A program made the translations under genes and the position numbers. Shown in pieces: positions 3,498 to 42,646 of a stretch of 64,000 nt of DNA. The notes under the pieces are model-generated. The model was not told the origin of the DNA. It saw only the letters and a program-made list of their open reading frames with translations, and searched no databases. Positions within the stretch are counted from its first letter, which is position 1. Every line of letters starts with the position of its first letter. This DNA comes from Stellaceae bacterium (GTDB taxonomy: Bacteria; Pseudomonadota; Alphaproteobacteria; ATCC43930; CGMCC-115725), in the NCBI GenBank assembly GCA_036510675.1, contig DATCDN010000138.1, positions 109,199 through 173,198 on the forward strand, in the 5' to 3' direction.

Positions 3498-4127
3498 ATG
3501 GCCGAAACCAGCGCCCCTTCCAGCCCGATCGCCGGCCTGATCCTAGCCGGCGGCCAGGGGCGGCGCATGGGCGGCGACAAGGCGCTGCGCCTCCTCGGCG
3601 GCACGCCCCTCGTGGGCCATGCGATTGCCCGCGCGACACCGCAGGTCGGCCCGCTGGCGATCAGCGCCAATGGGTCGGCGCCATTTGCCGATTTCGGCCT
3701 GCCGATCCTCGCCGACAGCGTGCCGGGCTTCGTCGGACCGCTGGCCGGCATTCTAGCCGGCATGGACTGGGCGGCGGAACAGGGCCTGACGTCGATCGCC
3801 AGCTTCCCCTGCGATGCGCCGCTGTTCCCGCGCGACCTGGTGGCGCGGCTGGCCGAGGCGCGGCGGCGCGAGGGCGCGGTGCTGGCCTGCGCCCGGTCGG
3901 GGGGCCGGCGCCATCCGGTATTCGCGCTATGGCCGACCGAAATGCGGGCGGCGCTACGCGTCGCGCTGACGGATGACGGAATCCGCCGGGTCGCGGATTG
4001 GTGCGCGCGCTATCCGGTCGCCATGGTAGATTTTCCGACGGCGCCGTTCGATCCGTTTTTCAATGTCAACACCCCGAGCGACCTCGCCGAAGCGGAAACA
4101 TTGCTCGCGGCGCACCGATCGGCCTAA
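3498..4127 (+). CDS. mobA: molybdenum cofactor guanylyltransferase MobA
   Basis: 209 aa with the N-terminal LILAGGQGRRMGG-DKAL motif. It is divergent from moaA. Confidence 0.8.
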   Translation: MAETSAPSSPIAGLILAGGQGRRMGGDKALRLLGGTPLVGHAIARATPQVGPLAISANGSAPFADFGLPILADSVPGFVGPLAGILAGMDWAAEQGLTSIASFPCDAPLFPRDLVARLAEARRREGAVLACARSGGRRHPVFALWPTEMRAALRVALTDDGIRRVADWCARYPVAMVDFPTAPFDPFFNVNTPSDLAEAETLLAAHRSA

Positions 4128-4154
4128 TGTGCCACTGATGGTTGCGGGGAGCGG

Positions 4155-4772
4155 ATGAGCACGAACATCGACGTCCGCGTGCTGGAGTTATTGACCGCGC
4201 GCCTCTGCCATGAGCTGGCGGGGCCGGTCTCGGCGGTGGTCAACGGCGTCGAGCTGATGAGCGAAGAAGACCCCGATTTCGTCGCCGACGCGGTGCGGCT
4301 GGTCGGCACTAGCGCGCGCACCGTCTCGAAACGCCTGCAATTCTATCGCTTCGCCTATGGCACGCTGCCCGGCGAGGGGGCATCGACGGCCACCGGGCGC
4401 GACCTCGCGCTTAAATATTTCGATGCCGGCAATGTCCATTGCACTTGGCCGGCGGAGGAGCCGGCGCGGCCGCTCGGGTGGCAGCGCGTCGCCTGCATGC
4501 TGTTGGTTCTGGCCGCCGAGGCGCTGCCCCGCGGCGGCACGGTGACAGTGCGCGGCCAGGGCACGGGCATGGCGATCGAGGCGGATGGCGATGTGGTCCG
4601 CCTGACGCCCGAGGCGCAGGCCGGGTTACAGGCCGACGTCTCGATCGAGAATCTGACGGCGCGCGGCGTCCATGCCCATCTGTGCATGCGCTTCGCCGCG
4701 GATGTCGGGCTGAAAATCGCCCCGCCCCGGCTGGAGCCGCGACGGCTGCGGGTCGAGCTGACCCCGGCCTGA
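4155..4772 (+). CDS. chpT: histidine phosphotransferase ChpT (CckA to CtrA/CpdR relay)
   Basis: 205 aa. LLTARLCHELAGPVSAVVNGVELM matches the ChpT phospho-His helix (Caulobacter LAARLCHDFISPASAIVSGLDLL). It has a degenerate HATPase-like C-terminus and is convergent with ctrA. Confidence 0.8.
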   Translation: MSTNIDVRVLELLTARLCHELAGPVSAVVNGVELMSEEDPDFVADAVRLVGTSARTVSKRLQFYRFAYGTLPGEGASTATGRDLALKYFDAGNVHCTWPAEEPARPLGWQRVACMLLVLAAEALPRGGTVTVRGQGTGMAIEADGDVVRLTPEAQAGLQADVSIENLTARGVHAHLCMRFAADVGLKIAPPRLEPRRLRVELTPA

Positions 4773-4783
4773 GACGGCGCGGC

Positions 4784-5497
4784 TCAGGTCTTGGCGAGCT
4801 TCTTCAGGCCGGCGGCGGCGGGGGCGGGATCGCGCAGCACATAGCCGCGGCCCCACACGGTCTCGATATAATTGTCGCCCTTGGCCGCGGTCGAGAGCTT
4901 TTTGCGTAGCTTGCAGACGAAGACGTCGATGATCTTCGGCTCCGGCTCGTCCATGCCGCCATAGAGATGGTTGAGGAACATCTCCTTGGTCAGCGTGGTG
5001 CCCTTGCGCAGGCTGAGCAATTCGAGGATGCCGTATTCCTTGCCGGTCAAGTGCAAGGGCTTGCCTTCGATATCGACGGTGTGGCTCTCCAGATTGACCG
5101 TGAGCTTGCCGGTGCGGATGGTCGATTCGGCATGGCCCTTGGCGCGCCGGACGATGGCCTGGATGCGCGCCAGCAACTCGCGGCGCTCAAACGGCTTGGT
5201 CAGGAAATCGTCGGCGCCGAAGCCGAGACCCTTCACCTTGTTGTCGAGGCCGGACAGGCCGGACAGGATCAGGATCGGCGTGCGCACCTTGGCCGAACGC
5301 AGCCGGCGCAGCACCTCATAGCCGTCGATGTCCGGCAGCATCAGATCGAGAATGATGATGTCGTAATCATAGAGCTTGCCGATCTCGAGCCCGTCTTCGC
5401 CGAGGTCCGTCGTATCGCAGACGAACCCTTCGGCTTGCAGCATCATCGAAATGCTGGTGGCCGTCGCCGAATCGTCTTCAACCAGAAGCACCCGCAT
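4784..5497 (-). CDS. ctrA: cell-cycle response regulator CtrA (OmpR family)
   Basis: 237 aa. The receiver domain reads [26 protein letters not shown]. The winged-helix part is [51 protein letters not shown], typical of CtrA. Confidence 0.92.
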
Positions 5498-5551
5498 AAC
5501 CCCTCCACCGCGCCAGAACCATCATTCTCTAAAATGCAAGTATAACGGTTC

Positions 5552-5578
5552 TTAATCATCGTTACCAGAACTGTTAAC
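5552..5578. promoter_or_regulatory. CtrA-box-like half sites upstream of ctrA
   Basis: TTAA at 5552-5555 and TTAAC at 5574-5578 are exactly 22 bp apart (two helical turns). An intermediate TTAC lies at 5562-5565. The sites are 55-80 bp upstream of the ctrA ATG. This is not a clean TTAA-N7-TTAAC. Confidence 0.3.
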
Positions 5579-5630
5579 GATGGACGATAAATCAATGGAA
5601 GGGACCGGAAAAGGTTTCGGGCAGGGTCGG

Positions 5631-5933
5631 CTAGCGACGATCTCCGGCGCGATAGCTCTGAAGACGTGTTACGCGTAATCCGGGAATCCCGTGATGATCC
5701 ACCAGGGCCTGCCAGGTGAAGAATTCCTCGGTCGAGAGCTTATAGCGTTCGCACGCTTGCTCGAGGGTGAGGATGCCGCTCTTCACCGCGTCGACGACCG
5801 CGGCCTTGCGCCGAATGACCCATCTCTTGGTATTCGGCGACGGCAGGCCTTCATCGAGCGGCTCCGGTTCCGGCGAGAAGGGAACCGGGGTGCCGAGGGC
5901 ATAGGACATTGTGGTGGCGGGCTTGCTTGGCAT
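5631..5933 (-). CDS. sciP: SciP-like small CtrA inhibitor (DUF1153 helix-turn-helix protein)
   Basis: 100 aa. TKRWVIRRKAAVVDAVKSGILTLEQACERYKLSTEEFFTWQALVDHHGIPGLRVTRLQSYR closely resembles Caulobacter SciP. It lies directly upstream of ctrA on the same strand. Confidence 0.85.
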   Translation of the reverse strand: MPSKPATTMSYALGTPVPFSPEPEPLDEGLPSPNTKRWVIRRKAAVVDAVKSGILTLEQACERYKLSTEEFFTWQALVDHHGIPGLRVTRLQSYRAGDRR

Positions 5934-5958
5934 GGGCGCGAATTTATCGTGGGCGCTC

Positions 5959-5987
5959 TTAACAAAGACCTAAGAGATAGGGTTAAC
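5959..5987. promoter_or_regulatory. near-consensus CtrA box in the sciP/dksA divergent region
   Basis: TTAA-CAAAGAC-CTAA at 5959-5973 (TTAA-N7-CTAA, one mismatch to TTAA-N7-TTAA), plus TTAAC at 5983-5987. It lies just upstream of the sciP start. Confidence 0.4.
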
Positions 5988-6257
5988 GACCGCCCGAATA
6001 AGCCAAAAATGCCGGCCATTCCATCGTGGATCGGACGGCCCGCCCGCTCGGCCGGCAATTCCCCGGCGAATCGGGCGCCCAAGGCGGCCCCACCAGCAGG
6101 CGGCTACCCACAAATCCTGGTGGAATCGCTTAGGCTTTTCAAGCGGCTGGATCGCCATTCTTCCGCTTGCCCGGCTTGGGGGCGATTCATATACTCCGCC
6201 CCGTTATGCCGTCGGGGAGCGGTCATGGTGATGTACGGGGGTCCTACGGAGTTTACG

Positions 6258-6674
6258 ATGCGGCCGATGATTCCGGCGAACTATCGTCCATCCGAGGACG
6301 AGGAGTTCATGAACCCGCGTCAGCTCGAATATTTCCGCCAGAAACTGTTGCAGTGGCGGGAAGAGCTGCTGGTCGAGTCGTCGGGAACCTTGATGAATAT
6401 CAAGGATGGCGGTCTGTCGCAGCCGGACGTGACCGACCGCGCGACACTGGAGACCGACCGCTCGCTCGAGCTGCGAACGCGCGATCGCGAGCGCAAGCTG
6501 GTCTCGAAGATCGACGAGGCGTTGCAGCGCATCGAGGATGGCCGCTATGGCTATTGCGAAGACACGGACGAGCCGATCGGCCTGCGGCGGCTCGAAGCGC
6601 GGCCGATCGCGACCCTGAGCCTCGAGGCGCAGGAGCGGCACGAACGGCGCGAGCGCACCCACCGCGACGACTGA
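6258..6674 (+). CDS. dksA: RNA polymerase-binding transcription factor DksA
   Basis: 138 aa from the ATG at 6258. FMNPRQLEYFRQKLLQWREELL is followed by the coiled-coil DxxDxA tip (DVTDRATLETD). The C-terminus is GRYGYCEDTDEPIGLRRLEARPIATLSLEAQERHE. It is embedded in a longer spurious ORF (5691..6674). Confidence 0.88.
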   Translation: MRPMIPANYRPSEDEEFMNPRQLEYFRQKLLQWREELLVESSGTLMNIKDGGLSQPDVTDRATLETDRSLELRTRDRERKLVSKIDEALQRIEDGRYGYCEDTDEPIGLRRLEARPIATLSLEAQERHERRERTHRDD

Positions 6675-6751
6675 CTGGCGCGGCGCCACCGGGCGCGCCG
6701 CGAACTGTGGTATGCTCCGGGCATTCATCCCCGGAGAGCATCGATTCGCCC

Positions 6752-9256
6752 GTGACCATCGAGACGCTATTGCCCGCCGGCGGTATCGGCGACGACGATC
6801 CGCTGACCCCGGTGCTGATGCCGCAATGGCTGCGCCGGGTGCGCTATACCGGCTTGCTGTTCGGCGCGCTGGGCGTGGTGCTGTTCGCCGCCATCGCGAG
6901 CGGGCTGCTGACCAGCCGGCTGGCGCTGGCGCTGGCGTTGTTTTTCGTGATGCTGGCGGCGATGAGCGGCGTCGCCATTTTTGTCGCGCGCATGGGGGTG
7001 CGCGAGGTCGCGGGCCGCGCGGCCCTCCTCAGCCAGGCGATCGCGGCCTCCCCCAACGCCCACCTGATCGTCGCGCCCGAAGGCTCGATCACCTATGCCA
7101 ATTCGGCGTTCCGGCGCTTTTTCCCCGAGATTCGCACCCTGCCGCTGGAAGTCATCGCCCTTAGCCTGGTCGGCGATGAGGCGGCCAAGGAGTTCCAGCG
7201 CCTGGAGACCGAGGCGGTGGAGCGCGGCCGCGCCAGCGGGCGCCTCGCGATCCGGCGCAGCGCCGGCGCGACGCTGTGGTTCATCGTCTCCGCCAGCCTG
7301 CTGCCGCACAGCCCCGGCTATATGCTGTGGAGCTTCGAGGATATCACCCAGCGCCAGGAAATGGAGCAGGTGATCCGCGAGGAGGGCGAAACCCCCGCCG
7401 ATTTCCTCGACAGCTCGGCGACCGGCTTCTATTCGGTCGATGGCGAGGGCCGCTTCCTGTTGGTCAACCAGACGCTCGCCGATTGGTTCGGCCGCACGCC
7501 GGGCGAACTGGTGGAAAGCGGCGCCCGCCTCATCGATTTCGTCATCGCCGATGGCCCGATCCGCGGTCCCGCCTATGCGCCGTTCGCCGGCGGCGGCGAA
7601 GGCGCCCAGCGGGGCGAGCTGGTGCTGCGCGCCACCGAAGGGCGGCTGATTTACGCCTCGGTCAGCCAGAGCGTGGTGCGCGCCGGCGACCAGCTGCGCA
7701 CCCGCTCGGTGGTGCGCGACCTGACCTCGCAACATGAATGGGCCGAGGCGCTGAAGCGCTCGCGGCTGCGGTTCCAGCGCCTGTTCGCCAACGCGCCGGT
7801 CGGCATCGCGCTGCTGGGCGATCGCGGCCGGATCGAGGAGGCGAACCGCGCGCTCGGCGATATGCTGGGCTCGACCGCCGTCGATCTGATCGGGCGCGAA
7901 CTGGCGGATTTCGTCATCGGCGAGGATCGCGGCCAGGTCGATGCGCATATCGCCGCCGCCAGCCAGGGGCCGGCGCGGCCGGTGGAGGCGCGGCTGATGG
8001 GGCCGCGCGAGATTTGGGCCTCGCTGTTCCTCAGCCGCCTTGAGGGCGAGGACGAGGCGGGGCTGGTCCTGCATGTCATCGACACCACCGAACAAAAGAG
8101 CCTCGAGACCCAATTCGCCCAGTCGCAGAAGATGCAGGCGGTGGGTCAGCTCGCCGGCGGGGTCGCGCATGATTTCAACAATCTGCTGACGGCGATGATC
8201 GGGTTCTGCGATTTGCTGCTGGTGCGGTTCAAGCCGGGCGATCCGTCCTTCGCCGACATCATGCAGATCAAGCAGAACGCCAATCGCGCCGCCAATCTGG
8301 TGCGGCAATTGCTGGCCTTTTCCCGCCAGCAGACCTTGCAGCCGACGGTGCTGAACCTGACCGAGGTGCTGGCCGAACTGTCGAACCTGTTGCGCCGGCT
8401 GATCGGTGAGAAGATCGAGCTGCGCGTCGTGCATGGCCGCGATCTCGGCCTGGTCGAGGTCGATCAGGGCCAGATGGAGCAGGTCGTAATCAATCTCGCC
8501 GTCAATGCCCGCGACGCGATGCCGAATGGCGGCGTGCTGACCATCCGTAGCGCCAACGCCACCATCGCCAGCCCGCTGCGGCGCGGCGTCGAGGTGATGC
8601 CGCCCGGCCAATATGTGCTGATCGAGGTCGGCGATACCGGGTTCGGGATTCCCAAGGAGAATCTATCGCGCATTTTCGAACCGTTCTTTTCCACGAAGGA
8701 GATCGGTAGCGGCACCGGCCTTGGCCTCTCCACCGTCTATGGCATCGTCAAGCAGACCGGCGGCTTCGTCTTCATCGACAGCGAGCCCGGCAAGGGCGCG
8801 CAATTCTCGATCTATCTGCCGCGCGCGCGCGGCAAGGCGGCGGTGCCGGTGCGCCCGATCGAAGCCGGCGACGACAGCGCCGACCTGACCGGCACCGCGA
8901 CGGTGCTGCTGGTCGAGGACGAGGATCCGGTGCGGCTCTTCAGCGCCCGCGCCCTGCGCAACAAGGGTTATCGCGTGATCGAGGCGAAGAGCGGCGAGGG
9001 CGCGCTCGAAATCGTCGAGCGTGGGGCCGAGCAGATCGACCTGATCATTTCCGACGTGGTGATGCCGCGCATGGACGGGCCGGAGATGGCGGCGAAGGTG
9101 CGCGAAAGCCACCCCGACATGAAGGTGATCTTCATCTCGGGCTATACCGAGGAAGCGTTCCGCGACCGGCTGACCCACGATGTCCATTTCCTGCCCAAGC
9201 CCTATAATCTGAAACAGCTCGCGGCCAAGGTGAAGCAGGTGCTGGAGGACGCGTAG
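6752..9256 (+). CDS. cckA: hybrid sensor histidine kinase CckA
   Basis: It has two N-terminal TM helices, PAS regions, the HisKA motif [14 protein letters not shown], HATPase motifs ([25 protein letters not shown]) and a C-terminal receiver ([24 protein letters not shown]). The start is the GTG at 6752 or the ATG at 6818. The tracked ORF start at 6167 overlaps dksA and is rejected. Confidence 0.85.
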
Positions 9257-9260
9257 GGAT

Positions 9261-9462
9261 CAGTCGTCAGTTATCAGTCTTCAGTTATCAGTCTTCAGTT
9301 ATCAGTTATCAGTCTTCAGTTATCAGTCCTGATCGCTATCGACCAACCGCCCAAAAACTGACGACTGATAACTGACGACTGATAACTGATAACTGACGAC
9401 TGACTGATAACTGACGACTGACAACTGACAACTGATAACTGTCAACTGACAACTGACAACTC
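9261..9462. repeat. inverted heptamer-array hairpin (10 x CAGTNNT, 23-nt spacer, 15 x ANNACTG plus one 4-nt partial)
   Basis: Units were read directly. The left arm is 9261-9330 and the right arm 9354-9462. When left unit n pairs with right unit n+1, the order of unit types is mirrored and 64 of 70 positions are complementary, with one 4-nt bulge (9403-9406). Confidence 0.95.
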
Positions 9463-9478
9463 TGGAGGAGGCGAATCC

Positions 9479-10363
9479 ATGAAATCGATCGTCACCGGCG
9501 GCAATCCGGTCGCAACGGTCCTGACCTTTTTGGTCTTTGCGCTGGCGGTGCTGTCGGGCTTCATCGCCCATGGCGGCGATGCGCCGGCTTTCTATGTCAT
9601 TGCCCTTATTCTGGTGGTCATCGCGCTGTTGATACCGCGCACCCTGATGATGGCCAATCAATGGGAGCGCGCGGTGATCCTGCGCGTCGGCAAGCTCGAA
9701 GCGGTGCGCGGTCCCGGCCTGTTCATCATCATCCCGTTCGTCGATTCGGTGGCGGCGATGCTCGACCAGCGCATCCAGACCACCGAGTTCAACGCCGAAT
9801 CCGCGCTCAGCAAGGACACCGTGCCGGTCAATATCGACGCGGTGATCTTCTGGCAGGTGTTTGATTCGGAAAAGGCCGCGCTGGAGATCACCGATTTCCG
9901 CTCCGCGATCGCCCGGGTGGCGCAGACCAGCCTGCGCGAGATGGTCGGCTCGTCCTTCCTCTCGACGCTGCTGTCGGATCGCAAGCAGGCCGACGAGGTG
10001 CTGCGCGCCGAGATCGGCCGCAAGATCGCGGGCTGGGGCATCACCGTTCACACCGTCGAGATTCGCGATGTCGGCATTCCGATGGCGCTGCAGGACGCGA
10101 TGAGCCGCCAGGCGCAGGCCGAGCGCGAGCGCCAGGCCCGCGTACTGCTGGGCCAGGCGGAGGTCGAAGTCGCACAGAAATTCCTCGATGCGGCCGAGAC
10201 CTATTCCAAGAACCCGGCGGCGCTGCAATTGCGGGCGATGAACATCATCTACGAGACCACCAAGGAACGCGGCGCCACCATTCTCATTCCGACCAGCATG
10301 ATCGACGCCATGAATCCGGGCGGCATCCTGGGGCTGGCTAGGGCCGCGCAGGAGGCGAAGTAG
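9479..10363 (+). CDS. SPFH/band 7 (stomatin/prohibitin-like) membrane protein
   Basis: 294 aa with an N-terminal TM segment. The SPFH core reads WERAVILRVGKL..GPGLFIIIPFVDS..TKDTVPVNIDAVIFWQV, followed by a C-terminal coiled coil QAQAERERQARVLL. The SD GGAGG lies at 9464-9468. Confidence 0.85.
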   Translation: MKSIVTGGNPVATVLTFLVFALAVLSGFIAHGGDAPAFYVIALILVVIALLIPRTLMMANQWERAVILRVGKLEAVRGPGLFIIIPFVDSVAAMLDQRIQTTEFNAESALSKDTVPVNIDAVIFWQVFDSEKAALEITDFRSAIARVAQTSLREMVGSSFLSTLLSDRKQADEVLRAEIGRKIAGWGITVHTVEIRDVGIPMALQDAMSRQAQAERERQARVLLGQAEVEVAQKFLDAAETYSKNPAALQLRAMNIIYETTKERGATILIPTSMIDAMNPGGILGLARAAQEAK

Positions 10364-27616: not shown

Positions 27617-27749
27617 CAGTTATCAGTTATCAGTTATCAGTTATCAGTTGTCAGTCTGATAACTGACGACTGACGACTGACGACTGACGACTGACGACTG
27701 ACGACTGATAACTGACGACTGACGACTGATAACTGACGACTGACGACTA
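27617..27749. repeat. inverted heptamer-array hairpin (6 x CAGTNNT directly abutting 13 x ANNACTG)
   Basis: The left arm is 27617-27658 (CAGTTAT x4, CAGTTGT, CAGTCTG). The right arm is 27659-27749 (ATAACTG x3, ACGACTG x9, ACGACTA). It fills almost the whole 143-bp gap between the two convergent stop codons. Confidence 0.95.
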
Positions 27750-42224: not shown

Positions 42225-42233
42225 GGTAATTGT

Positions 42234-42261
42234 CAGTCTTCAGTTGTCAGTTTTCAGTCAG
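42234..42261. repeat. left heptamer arm of the four-helix-bundle cassette (CAGTCTT CAGTTGT CAGTTTT CAGTCAG)
   Basis: Read directly. The last unit overlaps the AGGAG SD (42260-42264) of the downstream ORF. Confidence 0.9.
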
Positions 42262-42266
42262 GAGAA

Positions 42267-42626
42267 ATGCAGAATTTCCGCGACCTCAAGGTTTGGAGCA
42301 AGGCTCATGCGGTTGTGATTGCCGTGTACGCCGCGACCGAGCCGTTTCCAGCGGCGGAGCGTTTTGGCCTCACAAGCCAGATGCGTCGGGCCGCTTCCTC
42401 GATTCCGGCGAATATCGCCGAGGGATGCGGCCGTTCGAGCAATGCCGATTTGGCGCGCTTTCTCCATATCGCATTGGGATCGGCAAGCGAGCTCGACTAC
42501 TTTTTACTGCTCGCCCGCGATCTGAAATTCTTAAAGCCTCCAATTCACGACGATCTCCGCGCCAATGTTCAAGAGGTCAAACGAATGCTCGGCGGCCTGA
42601 TCGGTCGCGTCAGAACTGATGACTGA
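42267..42626 (+). CDS. four-helix-bundle protein (23S rRNA intervening-sequence protein / DGR Avd fold family)
   Basis: 119 aa. FRDLKVWSKAH, ERFGLTSQMRRAASSIPANIAEGCGR and FLHIALGSASELDYFLLLA match the TIGR02436/PF05635 pattern as I remember it. Confidence 0.85.
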   Translation: MQNFRDLKVWSKAHAVVIAVYAATEPFPAAERFGLTSQMRRAASSIPANIAEGCGRSSNADLARFLHIALGSASELDYFLLLARDLKFLKPPIHDDLRANVQEVKRMLGGLIGRVRTDD

Positions 42627-42646
42627 AAACTGATGACTGAAAACTT
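42612..42646. repeat. right heptamer arm of the cassette (AGAACTG ATGACTG AAAACTG ATGACTG AAAACTT)
   Basis: Read directly. It contains the ORF stop (42624-42626) and the yejF ATG (42633-42635). It includes a perfect 14-nt tandem duplication (42618-42631 = 42632-42645). Confidence 0.9.

Follow-up and report, generated by a model that had tools for sequence, protein, structure and literature searches.

The 64,000-nucleotide stretch of Stellaceae bacterium DNA analyzed here (GenBank assembly GCA_036510675.1, contig DATCDN010000138.1, positions 109,199 to 173,198; below, the window) carries a hairpin of tandem heptamers, array A, between the stop codon of a cckA-like gene and the Shine-Dalgarno (SD) sequence of a slipin/SPFH gene. 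Array A is probably a member, without an open reading frame (ORF), of a widespread palindromic family with the layout 5'-(TCAGYNN)n-loop-(NNRCTGA)m-3', and we read it as a tolerated selfish passenger that would form an RNase III-type stem. In the gene-bearing form of this family, the loop contains a small gene, typically a PF05635 gene in cellular genomes, and this is the same protein family and the same layout as in the ORF-containing intervening sequences (IVSs) of 23S rRNA.

Anatomy and folding of array A

The cckA-like gene ends with a TAG stop codon at 9254-9256, and the left arm of array A begins 4 nt later. This arm (9261-9330, unstranded) consists of 10 tandem CAGTNNT heptamers, which read as TCAGTNN from 9260, and its NN series from 5' to 3' is CG, TA, CT, TA, CT, TA, TA, CT, TA, CC. 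It is followed by the loop (9331-9353, unstranded), a unique 23-nt spacer (GATCGCTATCGACCAACCGCCCA) with 0 exact matches in metagenome_contigs, and by a right arm (9354-9462) of 15 ANNACTG units plus one 4-nt ACTG at 9403-9406. The right arm ends 1 nt before the SD sequence and 17 nt before the slipin ATG (9479). An earlier note on this DNA had claimed this layout, and reparsing the sequence confirmed it.

The paired portion of the right arm (9354-9434, unstranded) has unit 1 inside the loop and units 2 to 11 opposite left units 10 to 1, with the 4-nt ACTG as a bulge. The arms are complementary at 64 of 70 positions, and each left CTT lies opposite a right ACG (CGT in reverse complement), a T:C mismatch that gives no wobble pair on either strand. 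Right units 12 to 15 (9435-9462, 28 nt, unstranded; ATAACTG, TCAACTG, ACAACTG, and ACAACTC) have no partner and form a single-stranded tail from the stem to the SD sequence. The count, the systematic mismatch, and the four partnerless units match the mirrored pairing of the earlier note exactly. The SD sequence itself (GGAGGAGG, 9463-9470, plus strand) is unpaired or weakly paired in the minimum-free-energy (MFE) fold.

The palindrome had also been called genuine and not random, and the statistics bear this out for a long imperfect palindrome. With ≤1 mismatch allowed, CAGTNNTCAGTNNTCAGT has 41 matches in the window versus 0.00 in 100 shuffles, and all 41 are confined to three loci, at 9.3 kb (array A), 27.6 kb (a second gene-less hairpin, array B), and 42.2 to 42.6 kb (a cassette with a PF05635 gene between heptamer arms). 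TRF reported period-7 arrays at 9259-9327 and 9356-9461. The RNA fold computed for array A is about −105 to −109 kcal/mol (−109 for 9250-9485; z = −12.5), with 0 of 200 shuffles as good, and the DNA fold is −61.7 kcal/mol (z = −12.3). The G+C content of array A is 43% versus 66% for the window. Rfam gave 0 matches at gathering score across the 64 kb. GGA flanks array A at both ends (TAG GGA, element, GGA GGAGG), at best a 3-nt candidate target-site duplication.

A TGA every 7 nt places stops in all three frames of the 3' arm, whichever strand is read. A 301-amino-acid (aa) minus-strand ORF from the mechanical ORF list (window 9323-10228) crosses the right arm of array A (..VVSCQLTVISCQLSVVSYQS..). 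The repeat is without stops on the minus strand, which may lead to spurious calls of repeat-encoded "proteins" at loci of this kind.

Alleles of the cckA-slipin site in relatives

We collected orthologous spacers through an exact-protein look-up of the slipin gene and through slipin relatives by identity. The entire 222-nt cckA-slipin spacer is base-for-base identical in two independent Joint Genome Institute (JGI) assemblies (L002 and L003), and a Logan contig (L001) that starts within the right arm holds a partial copy. A near-identical strain (L089; 100% slipin identity as listed, separate protein P0122, one single-nucleotide polymorphism in the cckA tail) has a 113-nt spacer with the same hairpin and the same 23-nt loop and with 5 left and about 5 right units. 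More distant relatives have compact spacers of 16 nt (L091, 82% identity) or 13 nt (L092 to L097, 79% identity; ACAGGGAGGGCGC). Presence or absence in relatives and unit-number polymorphism had been proposed in the earlier note as ways to check the array, and both were found: the site is empty, at 13 to 16 nt, in L091 to L097, and near-identical strains carry 5+5 and 10+15.6 units. The compact spacer is, by this sequence comparison, the apparent ancestral state, and the absence of the hairpin from the 13- to 16-nt spacers of related Stellaceae indicates that array A was gained in recent ancestry.

The arm length of array A changes fast and by whole units, as the 5+5 and 10+15.6 alleles of near-identical strains show. 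The 5+5 allele already contains the CT(left):CG(right) mismatch, and the long allele has it repeatedly. Since the mismatch was copied along, each arm expanded by duplicating its own units, and the register was kept nonetheless.

A contig with an identical slipin protein (L004) has, in the stop-to-SD interval, an unrelated 152-nt G+C-rich nested palindrome (62-213 of ENA ERZ27294387 k141_413836, orthologous to window 9257-9462; palindromes CCCTCTCCGCCCC..GGGGCGGAGAGG and GGTGAGGTGGG..CCCACCTCACC). The slipin SD sequence is also present after this element, an ancestral TAG-GGAGGAGGCGAA would fit this allele, and the window holds no copy of the L004-type element. The cckA-slipin site is a hotspot for palindromic elements. 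Two further assemblies carry an identical array B, and four carry an identical cassette, the sample with the L004 allele among them; with both unchanged between assemblies, the cckA site is the most dynamic of the three loci.

The relative at 86% identity (L090) has a 37-nt spacer (1464-1500) with one GACAACTGAAAAC, which matches one to two right-arm units and could be what a lost hairpin left behind, a seed, or a chance match. Short-read contigs stop within arrays (L001 and L350), and most contigs with close PF05635 homologues are about 1 to 2 kb long. Arrays evidently break up metagenome assemblies, and copy numbers are therefore probably undercounted.

Gene-less hairpins of the same family follow stop codons

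Gene-less hairpins are the common form of the family. In 1.26 Mb surrounding PF05635 genes, we found 21 left-right hairpins with loops of ≤120 nt, of which about nine lie 10 to 30 nt upstream of a PF05635 ATG and about eight are independent, one with 17+24 units. A pattern of three units, a 5- to 35-nt loop, and three units matched at least 120 stretches in metagenome_contigs and at least 120 in viral_contigs. The 123 metagenomic hairpins among the matches listed (the listed hairpins below) have a median of 4+4 units and a maximum of 8/10, which makes the 10+15.6 units in the window unusually long; 83 are of the CAGC type and 40 of the CAGT type. The loops are all different, whether of array A, of array B, of the 123 listed hairpins, or of 10 hairpins on one viral contig.

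These hairpins go with gene ends. The stop codon of a long ORF reading toward the hairpin lies within 60 nt, mostly 0 to 12 nt, at 69 of the 82 evaluable listed metagenomic hairpins, versus 5 to 7 stop-adjacent cases at control positions shifted by 300 to 400 nt. Sixteen of the listed hairpins have stops on both sides, as array B does, and only 4 lie inside a long ORF. Many hairpins lie between convergent genes, array B included. Among the viral matches listed, 142 of 163 hairpins are stop adjacent. The polarity is strict, with at least 120 TCAGY-first stretches versus 3 in mirror order (RCTGA arm first) across the whole viral collection and 375 versus 6 within fetched loci.

At the metagenomic hairpins L098 to L217, the commonest distance between the upstream stop codon and the first strict unit is 3 nt, and the distance is 3 modulo 7, in phase with the array, in 19 of 65 listed. 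The hairpin-adjacent stop, often TAG, occupies the place of a degenerate outermost unit (TTAGC-like). TAG enrichment at these stops was not significant (P = 0.16), and the phase signal is only modest. Two hairpins of L104 (3745-3819 and 6284-6358), 2.5 kb apart and the only pair with near-identical loops (30 nt), were considered as a copy-and-paste pair; their flanks are similar too, and we attribute the pair to local segmental duplication.

Some viral contigs are dense in family hairpins (L303, IMGVR_UViG_3300045933_000102; L241, L252, and L253, IMGVR_UViG_3300045936_000120), and one of them packs 10 hairpins into 14 kb, at nearly all gene boundaries and with no two loops alike. In a proteobacterial metagenome-assembled genome (MAG), a gene-less hairpin exactly spans the tRNA-Ile/tRNA-Ala spacer of an rRNA operon (L026, 3503-3640), and a PF05635 gene lies about 375 nt past the 5S gene of the same operon. 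In that contig, 2.6 kb with a 592-aa ORF of RCC1-like repeats (3724-6297) parts tRNA-Ala from the 23S gene, an oddity for an rRNA operon that could be a misassembly.

The same arms flank PF05635 genes

The earlier note had likened array A to the arms around a four-helix-bundle ORF at 42.2 kb, and the two do share unit (TCAGTNN/NNACTGA), polarity, and architecture. The left arm of this cassette (42230-42261, unstranded) has 4 TCAGTNN units and begins 6 nt past the stop codon of an ABC permease gene. The gene that follows (42267-42626, plus strand) belongs to PF05635/TIGR02436, the Avd-like family of 23S rRNA IVS proteins (Pfam E = 5.7e-38; TIGR02436 E = 2.2e-36; PDB 2GSC E = 2.8e-20). The right arm (42614-42645, unstranded) has 4 NNACTGA units, encodes the final codons of the PF05635 ORF (..RTDD*) and its stop, and overlaps both that stop and the ATG (42633) of an ABC ATPase gene. 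The arms pair in the predicted fold. The cassette protein (119 aa) is weakly related to Avd of diversity-generating retroelements (DGRs), and the solved structures nearest to it, 2GSC and 2RLD, were both deposited with five chains. No transposase domain was found in the cassette cargo, which matched PF05635/TIGR02436 only, and PADLOC gave no defense-system match. The ABC ATPase called from the arm-internal ATG at 42633 begins MTENLL.., compared with MPSLL or MSSLL in orthologues.

To see how general this arrangement is, we searched the species representatives of GTDB with a profile built from close homologues and confirmed at least 573 PF05635 relatives. The arm analysis covered the best 80 of these (53 to 72% identity), with 78 evaluable loci, 75 for the strict detector. 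The 80 span Acidobacteriota, Chloroflexota, Nitrospirota, Planctomycetota, Proteobacteria, Cyanobacteriota, Bacteroidota, Spirochaetes, Verrucomicrobia, and one Bathyarchaeia MAG. Three or more heptamer units were present on both sides at 53 of 78 loci, on one side at 16, and on neither at 9. The strict TCAGY/RCTGA detector found both arms at 46 of 75 loci and 0 runs in shuffled sequence.

CAGC is the commonest arm core at these loci, followed by CAGT, TAGC, TAAGC, CTAGC, and TCGGC. The left core is the reverse complement of the right core at 38 of the 53 two-armed loci (permuted mean 22, maximum 30), and CAGT is never combined with CAGC at one of them. Arm complementarity is thus kept up across the family, as it is in array A. 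The PF05635 C terminus tracks the arm core, with ..LKADS* accompanying GCTGA and ..VKTDN* or ..RVRTDD* accompanying ACTGA. The heptamer arms of more distant, viral PF05635 genes have further different cores. We also considered lineage-specific recognition of arms by the protein and rejected it, the coupling of arm core to protein phylogeny being weak (61.7% within classes versus 58.3% between).

The cassette has orthologues in further Stellaceae species and in a Rhizobiaceae MAG, and these always lie in the same peptide-transporter-type operon (SBP_bac_5/BPD_transp_1/ABC_tran), with the ABC permease gene on one side and the ABC ATPase gene on the other. Their arms are TCAGT, TCAGC, or TAAGC by lineage, with both arms switching jointly. 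The cassette ORF is intact and, by its sequence differences, evidently under purifying selection (about 42 synonymous versus 34 nonsynonymous codon differences over 119 codons). Two candidate same-genome paralogues, P0014 and P0097, were rejected as such; they are cassette orthologues from other Stellaceae species.

Some gene-less hairpins retain traces of a PF05635 gene. In 4 of the 21 loops from the PF05635 loci, the R-M-L codons of the conserved ..EVKRML.. motif lie 5 to 12 nt past the left arm. These loops (one each in L035 and L061 and two, as tandem copies, in L039) represent three independent loci, all on the forward strand only, versus an expected 0.07 (P = 5.6e-5 for at least 3). The retained codons indicate that the hairpins of L035, L039, and L061 are cassettes stripped of most of the ORF. 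Among the listed short-loop metagenomic hairpins, the R-M-L motif was not enriched (1 observed versus 0.6 expected), and comparing translated loops with the PF05635 profile by hidden Markov model had no discriminating power on fragments of 5 to 15 aa. The array A loop, read in the frame of the arm TGA, gives ..LIAIDQPPKN*, and the family consensus is ..ALIARVKTDN*. It is plausible that array A was derived from a cassette.

Weighing explanations for array A

If array A is an ORF-less member of this family, its units would be gained and lost through slipped-strand mispairing, and the array would be a largely neutral or selfish passenger, presumably tolerated because it sits exactly between a stop codon and an SD sequence. 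Read-through from cckA would give an imperfect stem of about 70 bp, a predicted RNase III-type substrate, for which IVSs, rRNA processing stems, and T7 intercistronic sites are the precedents. A cut there would part the cistrons and give the cckA mRNA a protective 3' stem, and the slipin SD sequence would then stand behind a 28-nt unstructured leader of the (ACUGACA) type.

Several observations weigh against parts of this account. Across 74 folds (73 oriented hairpins and array A), G·U pairs number 104 on the sense and 110 on the antisense strand, and the MFEs are equal, so nothing favors constraint at the RNA level over the DNA level. A PF05635 gene is on the contig of only 1 of the 123 listed metagenomic hairpins and of 0 of the listed viral hairpin loci. 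On phage contigs, the same arms flank genes for an N6_N4 DNA methylase, an HTH_17 protein, and an antitoxin-like protein, which means that PF05635 is not an obligatory partner. The array A loop and the cassette 3' end share an 8-mer (CCTGATCG) that is not significant (shuffle P = 0.03, with the reverse-complement control higher). The family has no associated transposase or recombinase, and loops are unrelated among copies of one genome, unlike those of copy-and-paste elements.

Two suggestions of the earlier note stand in part. It had called array A a MITE-like derivative (MITE, miniature inverted-repeat transposable element). ORF-less derivatives do occur at the family level, as the R-M-L loops and the arms of PF05635 genes indicate; a MITE in the strict sense does not hold up, given the absence of a transposase, the unique loops, and a target-site duplication of 3 nt (GGA) at best. 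The absence of a transposase, the unique loops, and the hairpin-rich contigs without PF05635 also make a copy-and-paste model of the MITE or REPIN type a poor fit. The note had further proposed a very stable RNA stem upstream of a ribosome-binding site, and the stability was reproduced by computation. The role of such a stem is a computed prediction, with no G·U bias toward the sense strand and no U-tract.

The heptamers could instead have been selected by the host as protein-binding sites, possibly for a PF05635 protein in trans, or as a non-SD ribosome-loading leader, with unit number tuning or phase-varying slipin translation. TAACTGA repeats near Beggiatoaceae start codons have been proposed as sites of a translational regulator (PMC4679880), and Geobacter MTYCTGA arrays are annotated as putative global-regulator sites (PMC2700814). 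The right arm that stops 1 nt short of the SD sequence with 4 units unpaired, the conservation of 5 of 7 unit positions next to a variable dinucleotide, the strict polarity, and the strain differences in unit number all speak for such a role. We nevertheless think it unlikely. Related species manage with an empty site and a plain SD sequence, and a sister strain has an unrelated element, so no conserved need is evident; in addition, hairpins of the family accompany the 3' ends of genes and not their starts, and many of them, array B among them, lie between convergent genes.

An origin in place is less likely still. Here, a heptamer would be added or slipped at both 3' ends of a break or of a small preexisting hairpin, as in telomere-like healing, and then expand. 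Every hairpin has its own loop, two-ended 3' addition would produce the observed 5'-TCAGY...RCTGA-3' polarity on both strands, arms grow by duplicating their own variants, and PF05635 is homologous to Avd, the cofactor of a DGR reverse transcriptase. Against this purely inferential idea, no polymerase or reverse transcriptase is linked to the family, a fixed template is hard to reconcile with the variable NN positions, and the PF05635 codons kept in several loops point to descent from cassettes.

That array A is an intrinsic terminator or attenuator between cckA and the slipin gene seems very improbable. Its predicted stem is very stable and comes right after a stop codon, but no U-tract follows (3.1 T per 12 nt downstream on the sense strand across the family, versus 3.9 on the antisense), the stem is AT rich in a G+C-rich window, and the ancestral 13- to 16-nt spacer implies co-transcription. 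Scanning 9257-9478 revealed no terminator-like site and likewise no promoter-like site.

An assembly artefact or chimeric repeat collapse, which the contigs of other assemblies that break within arrays (L001 and L350) might suggest and which the earlier note had named as a concern, can be dismissed almost entirely, given the identical array in L002 and L003, the agreement of further assemblies on array B and the cassette, and the coherent short allele of L089 with the same loop and flanks.

Beyond the membership of array A in the family, we raise more tentatively, as a possibility short of an even chance, that heptamer-armed hairpins, PF05635 cassettes, and ORF-containing rRNA IVSs are one unnamed pan-bacterial and phage-borne class of elements with its own route for making or moving inverted heptamer arrays. 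The strict polarity resembles that of a linear element with telomere-like 3'-added repeats, and the pentameric Avd homologue PF05635 might act on the arrays.

Neighboring genes and array B

The gene upstream of array A (6740-9256, putative start, plus strand) encodes a CckA-like hybrid histidine kinase with PAS, HisKA, HATPase_c, and REC domains in Pfam. Its match to NCBIfam CckA NF046020 scores 733 bits over profile positions 33 to 868 of 868, below the 1000-bit equivalog cutoff. The downstream gene (9479-10363, plus strand) encodes a Band_7 protein (Pfam PF01145, E = 5.9e-35; database name "slipin family protein").

Array B (27617-27749, unstranded) has about 6 CAGTNNT units, a tip of about 6 nt, and 12 ANNACTG units. 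It occupies the 143-nt gap between a MAPEG gene and a Fer2-reductase gene that converge on it, with their stop codons 6 nt and 4 nt away, and its RNA fold is −67 kcal/mol (z = −9.9).

Significance

Heptamer tandem repeats such as TAACTGA and the cyanobacterial STRR sequences, and rRNA IVSs with an "S23p" ORF, have been separate puzzles for decades, and they are joined at this locus. What joins them is that the same arms occur as free hairpins after stop codons, around PF05635 genes of many phyla, around small phage genes, and in rRNA operon spacers. PF05635/TIGR02436 is a very large family with solved structures and no known function. If the single-class reading is true, it would explain the origin of rRNA IVSs, repeats of the TAACTGA and STRR type, and the function of PF05635, with its thousands of members. 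The cckA site offers a natural allelic series (empty, 5+5, 10+15.6, and another element) in which mobility, repeat dynamics, and RNA processing can be tested. On the practical side, the arrays break short-read assemblies and mislead gene callers, as with the minus-strand ORF through array A and the ATPase start at 42633 within a cassette arm.

Comparison with known systems

The 23S rRNA IVSs of Leptospira, Coxiella, Brucella, and Xanthomonas consist of an inverted-repeat stem with a PF05635 ("S23p") ORF in the loop; ORF-less forms exist, and the distribution is sporadic, as expected for horizontal transfer. In Coxiella, the IVS stem carries tandem heptamers whose number varies among strains, and RNase III, which excises the IVS, makes its 5' cut at the first repeat (PMC4990558). 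The family described here likewise combines an inverted-repeat stem with or without a PF05635 ORF, the cassette at 42.2 kb having the ORF and array A being the ORF-less form. The differences are that array A lies in an mRNA intergenic spacer between protein genes and not in helix 9, 25, or 45 of 23S rRNA and that its arms are long TCAGYNN arrays, whereas the IVS has a few GACAGAT units.

The TAACTGA direct repeats described by MacGregor in 2015 occur in Beggiatoaceae, Cyanobacteria, and Bacteroidetes in 2 to 6 copies, up to 43, with one inverted set (PMC4679880). They lie just upstream of start codons, mix with related heptamers, show indels in 7-nt steps among strains, and coincide with assembly breaks; that paper reports no link to PF05635 or to hairpins and no arrays in Alphaproteobacteria (PMC4679880). 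The right arm of array A has the identical heptamer, ATAACTG interleaved with ACGACTG and ACAACTG, but here it is one arm of a hairpin.

Cyanobacterial STRR heptamers are tandem 7-nt intergenic repeats. The "class 3" heptanucleotide sites of Geobacter (MTYCTGA) are putative regulator sites and are drawn as strand-switching pairs (PMC2700814). Both resemble array A in having a core of the CAGT or CTGA type in tandem 7-nt intergenic repeats, and they differ in that no hairpin-plus-cargo arrangement or link to PF05635 has been reported for them.

REPIN-RAYT systems comprise many short intergenic palindromic doublets, which prefer positions after genes, and a rarer protein gene flanked by the same repeats in inverted orientation. 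The RAYT protein is a Y1 (IS200-like) transposase, and REPIN copies share their whole sequence. In the present family, the flanked gene is PF05635, the members share only a 5-nt core, and the loops are unique. We know of no catalytic motif in the 119-aa PF05635 four-helix bundle. Array A is like a MITE in being short, noncoding, and multicopy, with inverted ends, presence/absence polymorphism, and longer gene-carrying relatives. Unlike a MITE, its family has no transposase-encoding parent, ends that are tandem arrays of variable length, unrelated loops, and no clear target-site duplication.

RNase III stems, such as the T7 intercistronic sites and those bracketing 16S and 23S rRNA, are long imperfect duplexes between cistrons or around a gene and have unique sequences. 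Family hairpins resemble them in lying at nearly every gene boundary of one phage contig and, in one case, in an rRNA operon spacer; they differ in being heptamer arrays, and the RNase III role of array A is a prediction. In the searchable literature, the hairpin architecture, the polarity, the adjacency to stop codons, the systematic association with PF05635, and the abundance in phages are not described. The parts were known before, as TAACTGA repeats, Geobacter sites, Coxiella IVS heptamers, and STRRs, and array A is a palindromic intergenic repeat element related to IVSs.

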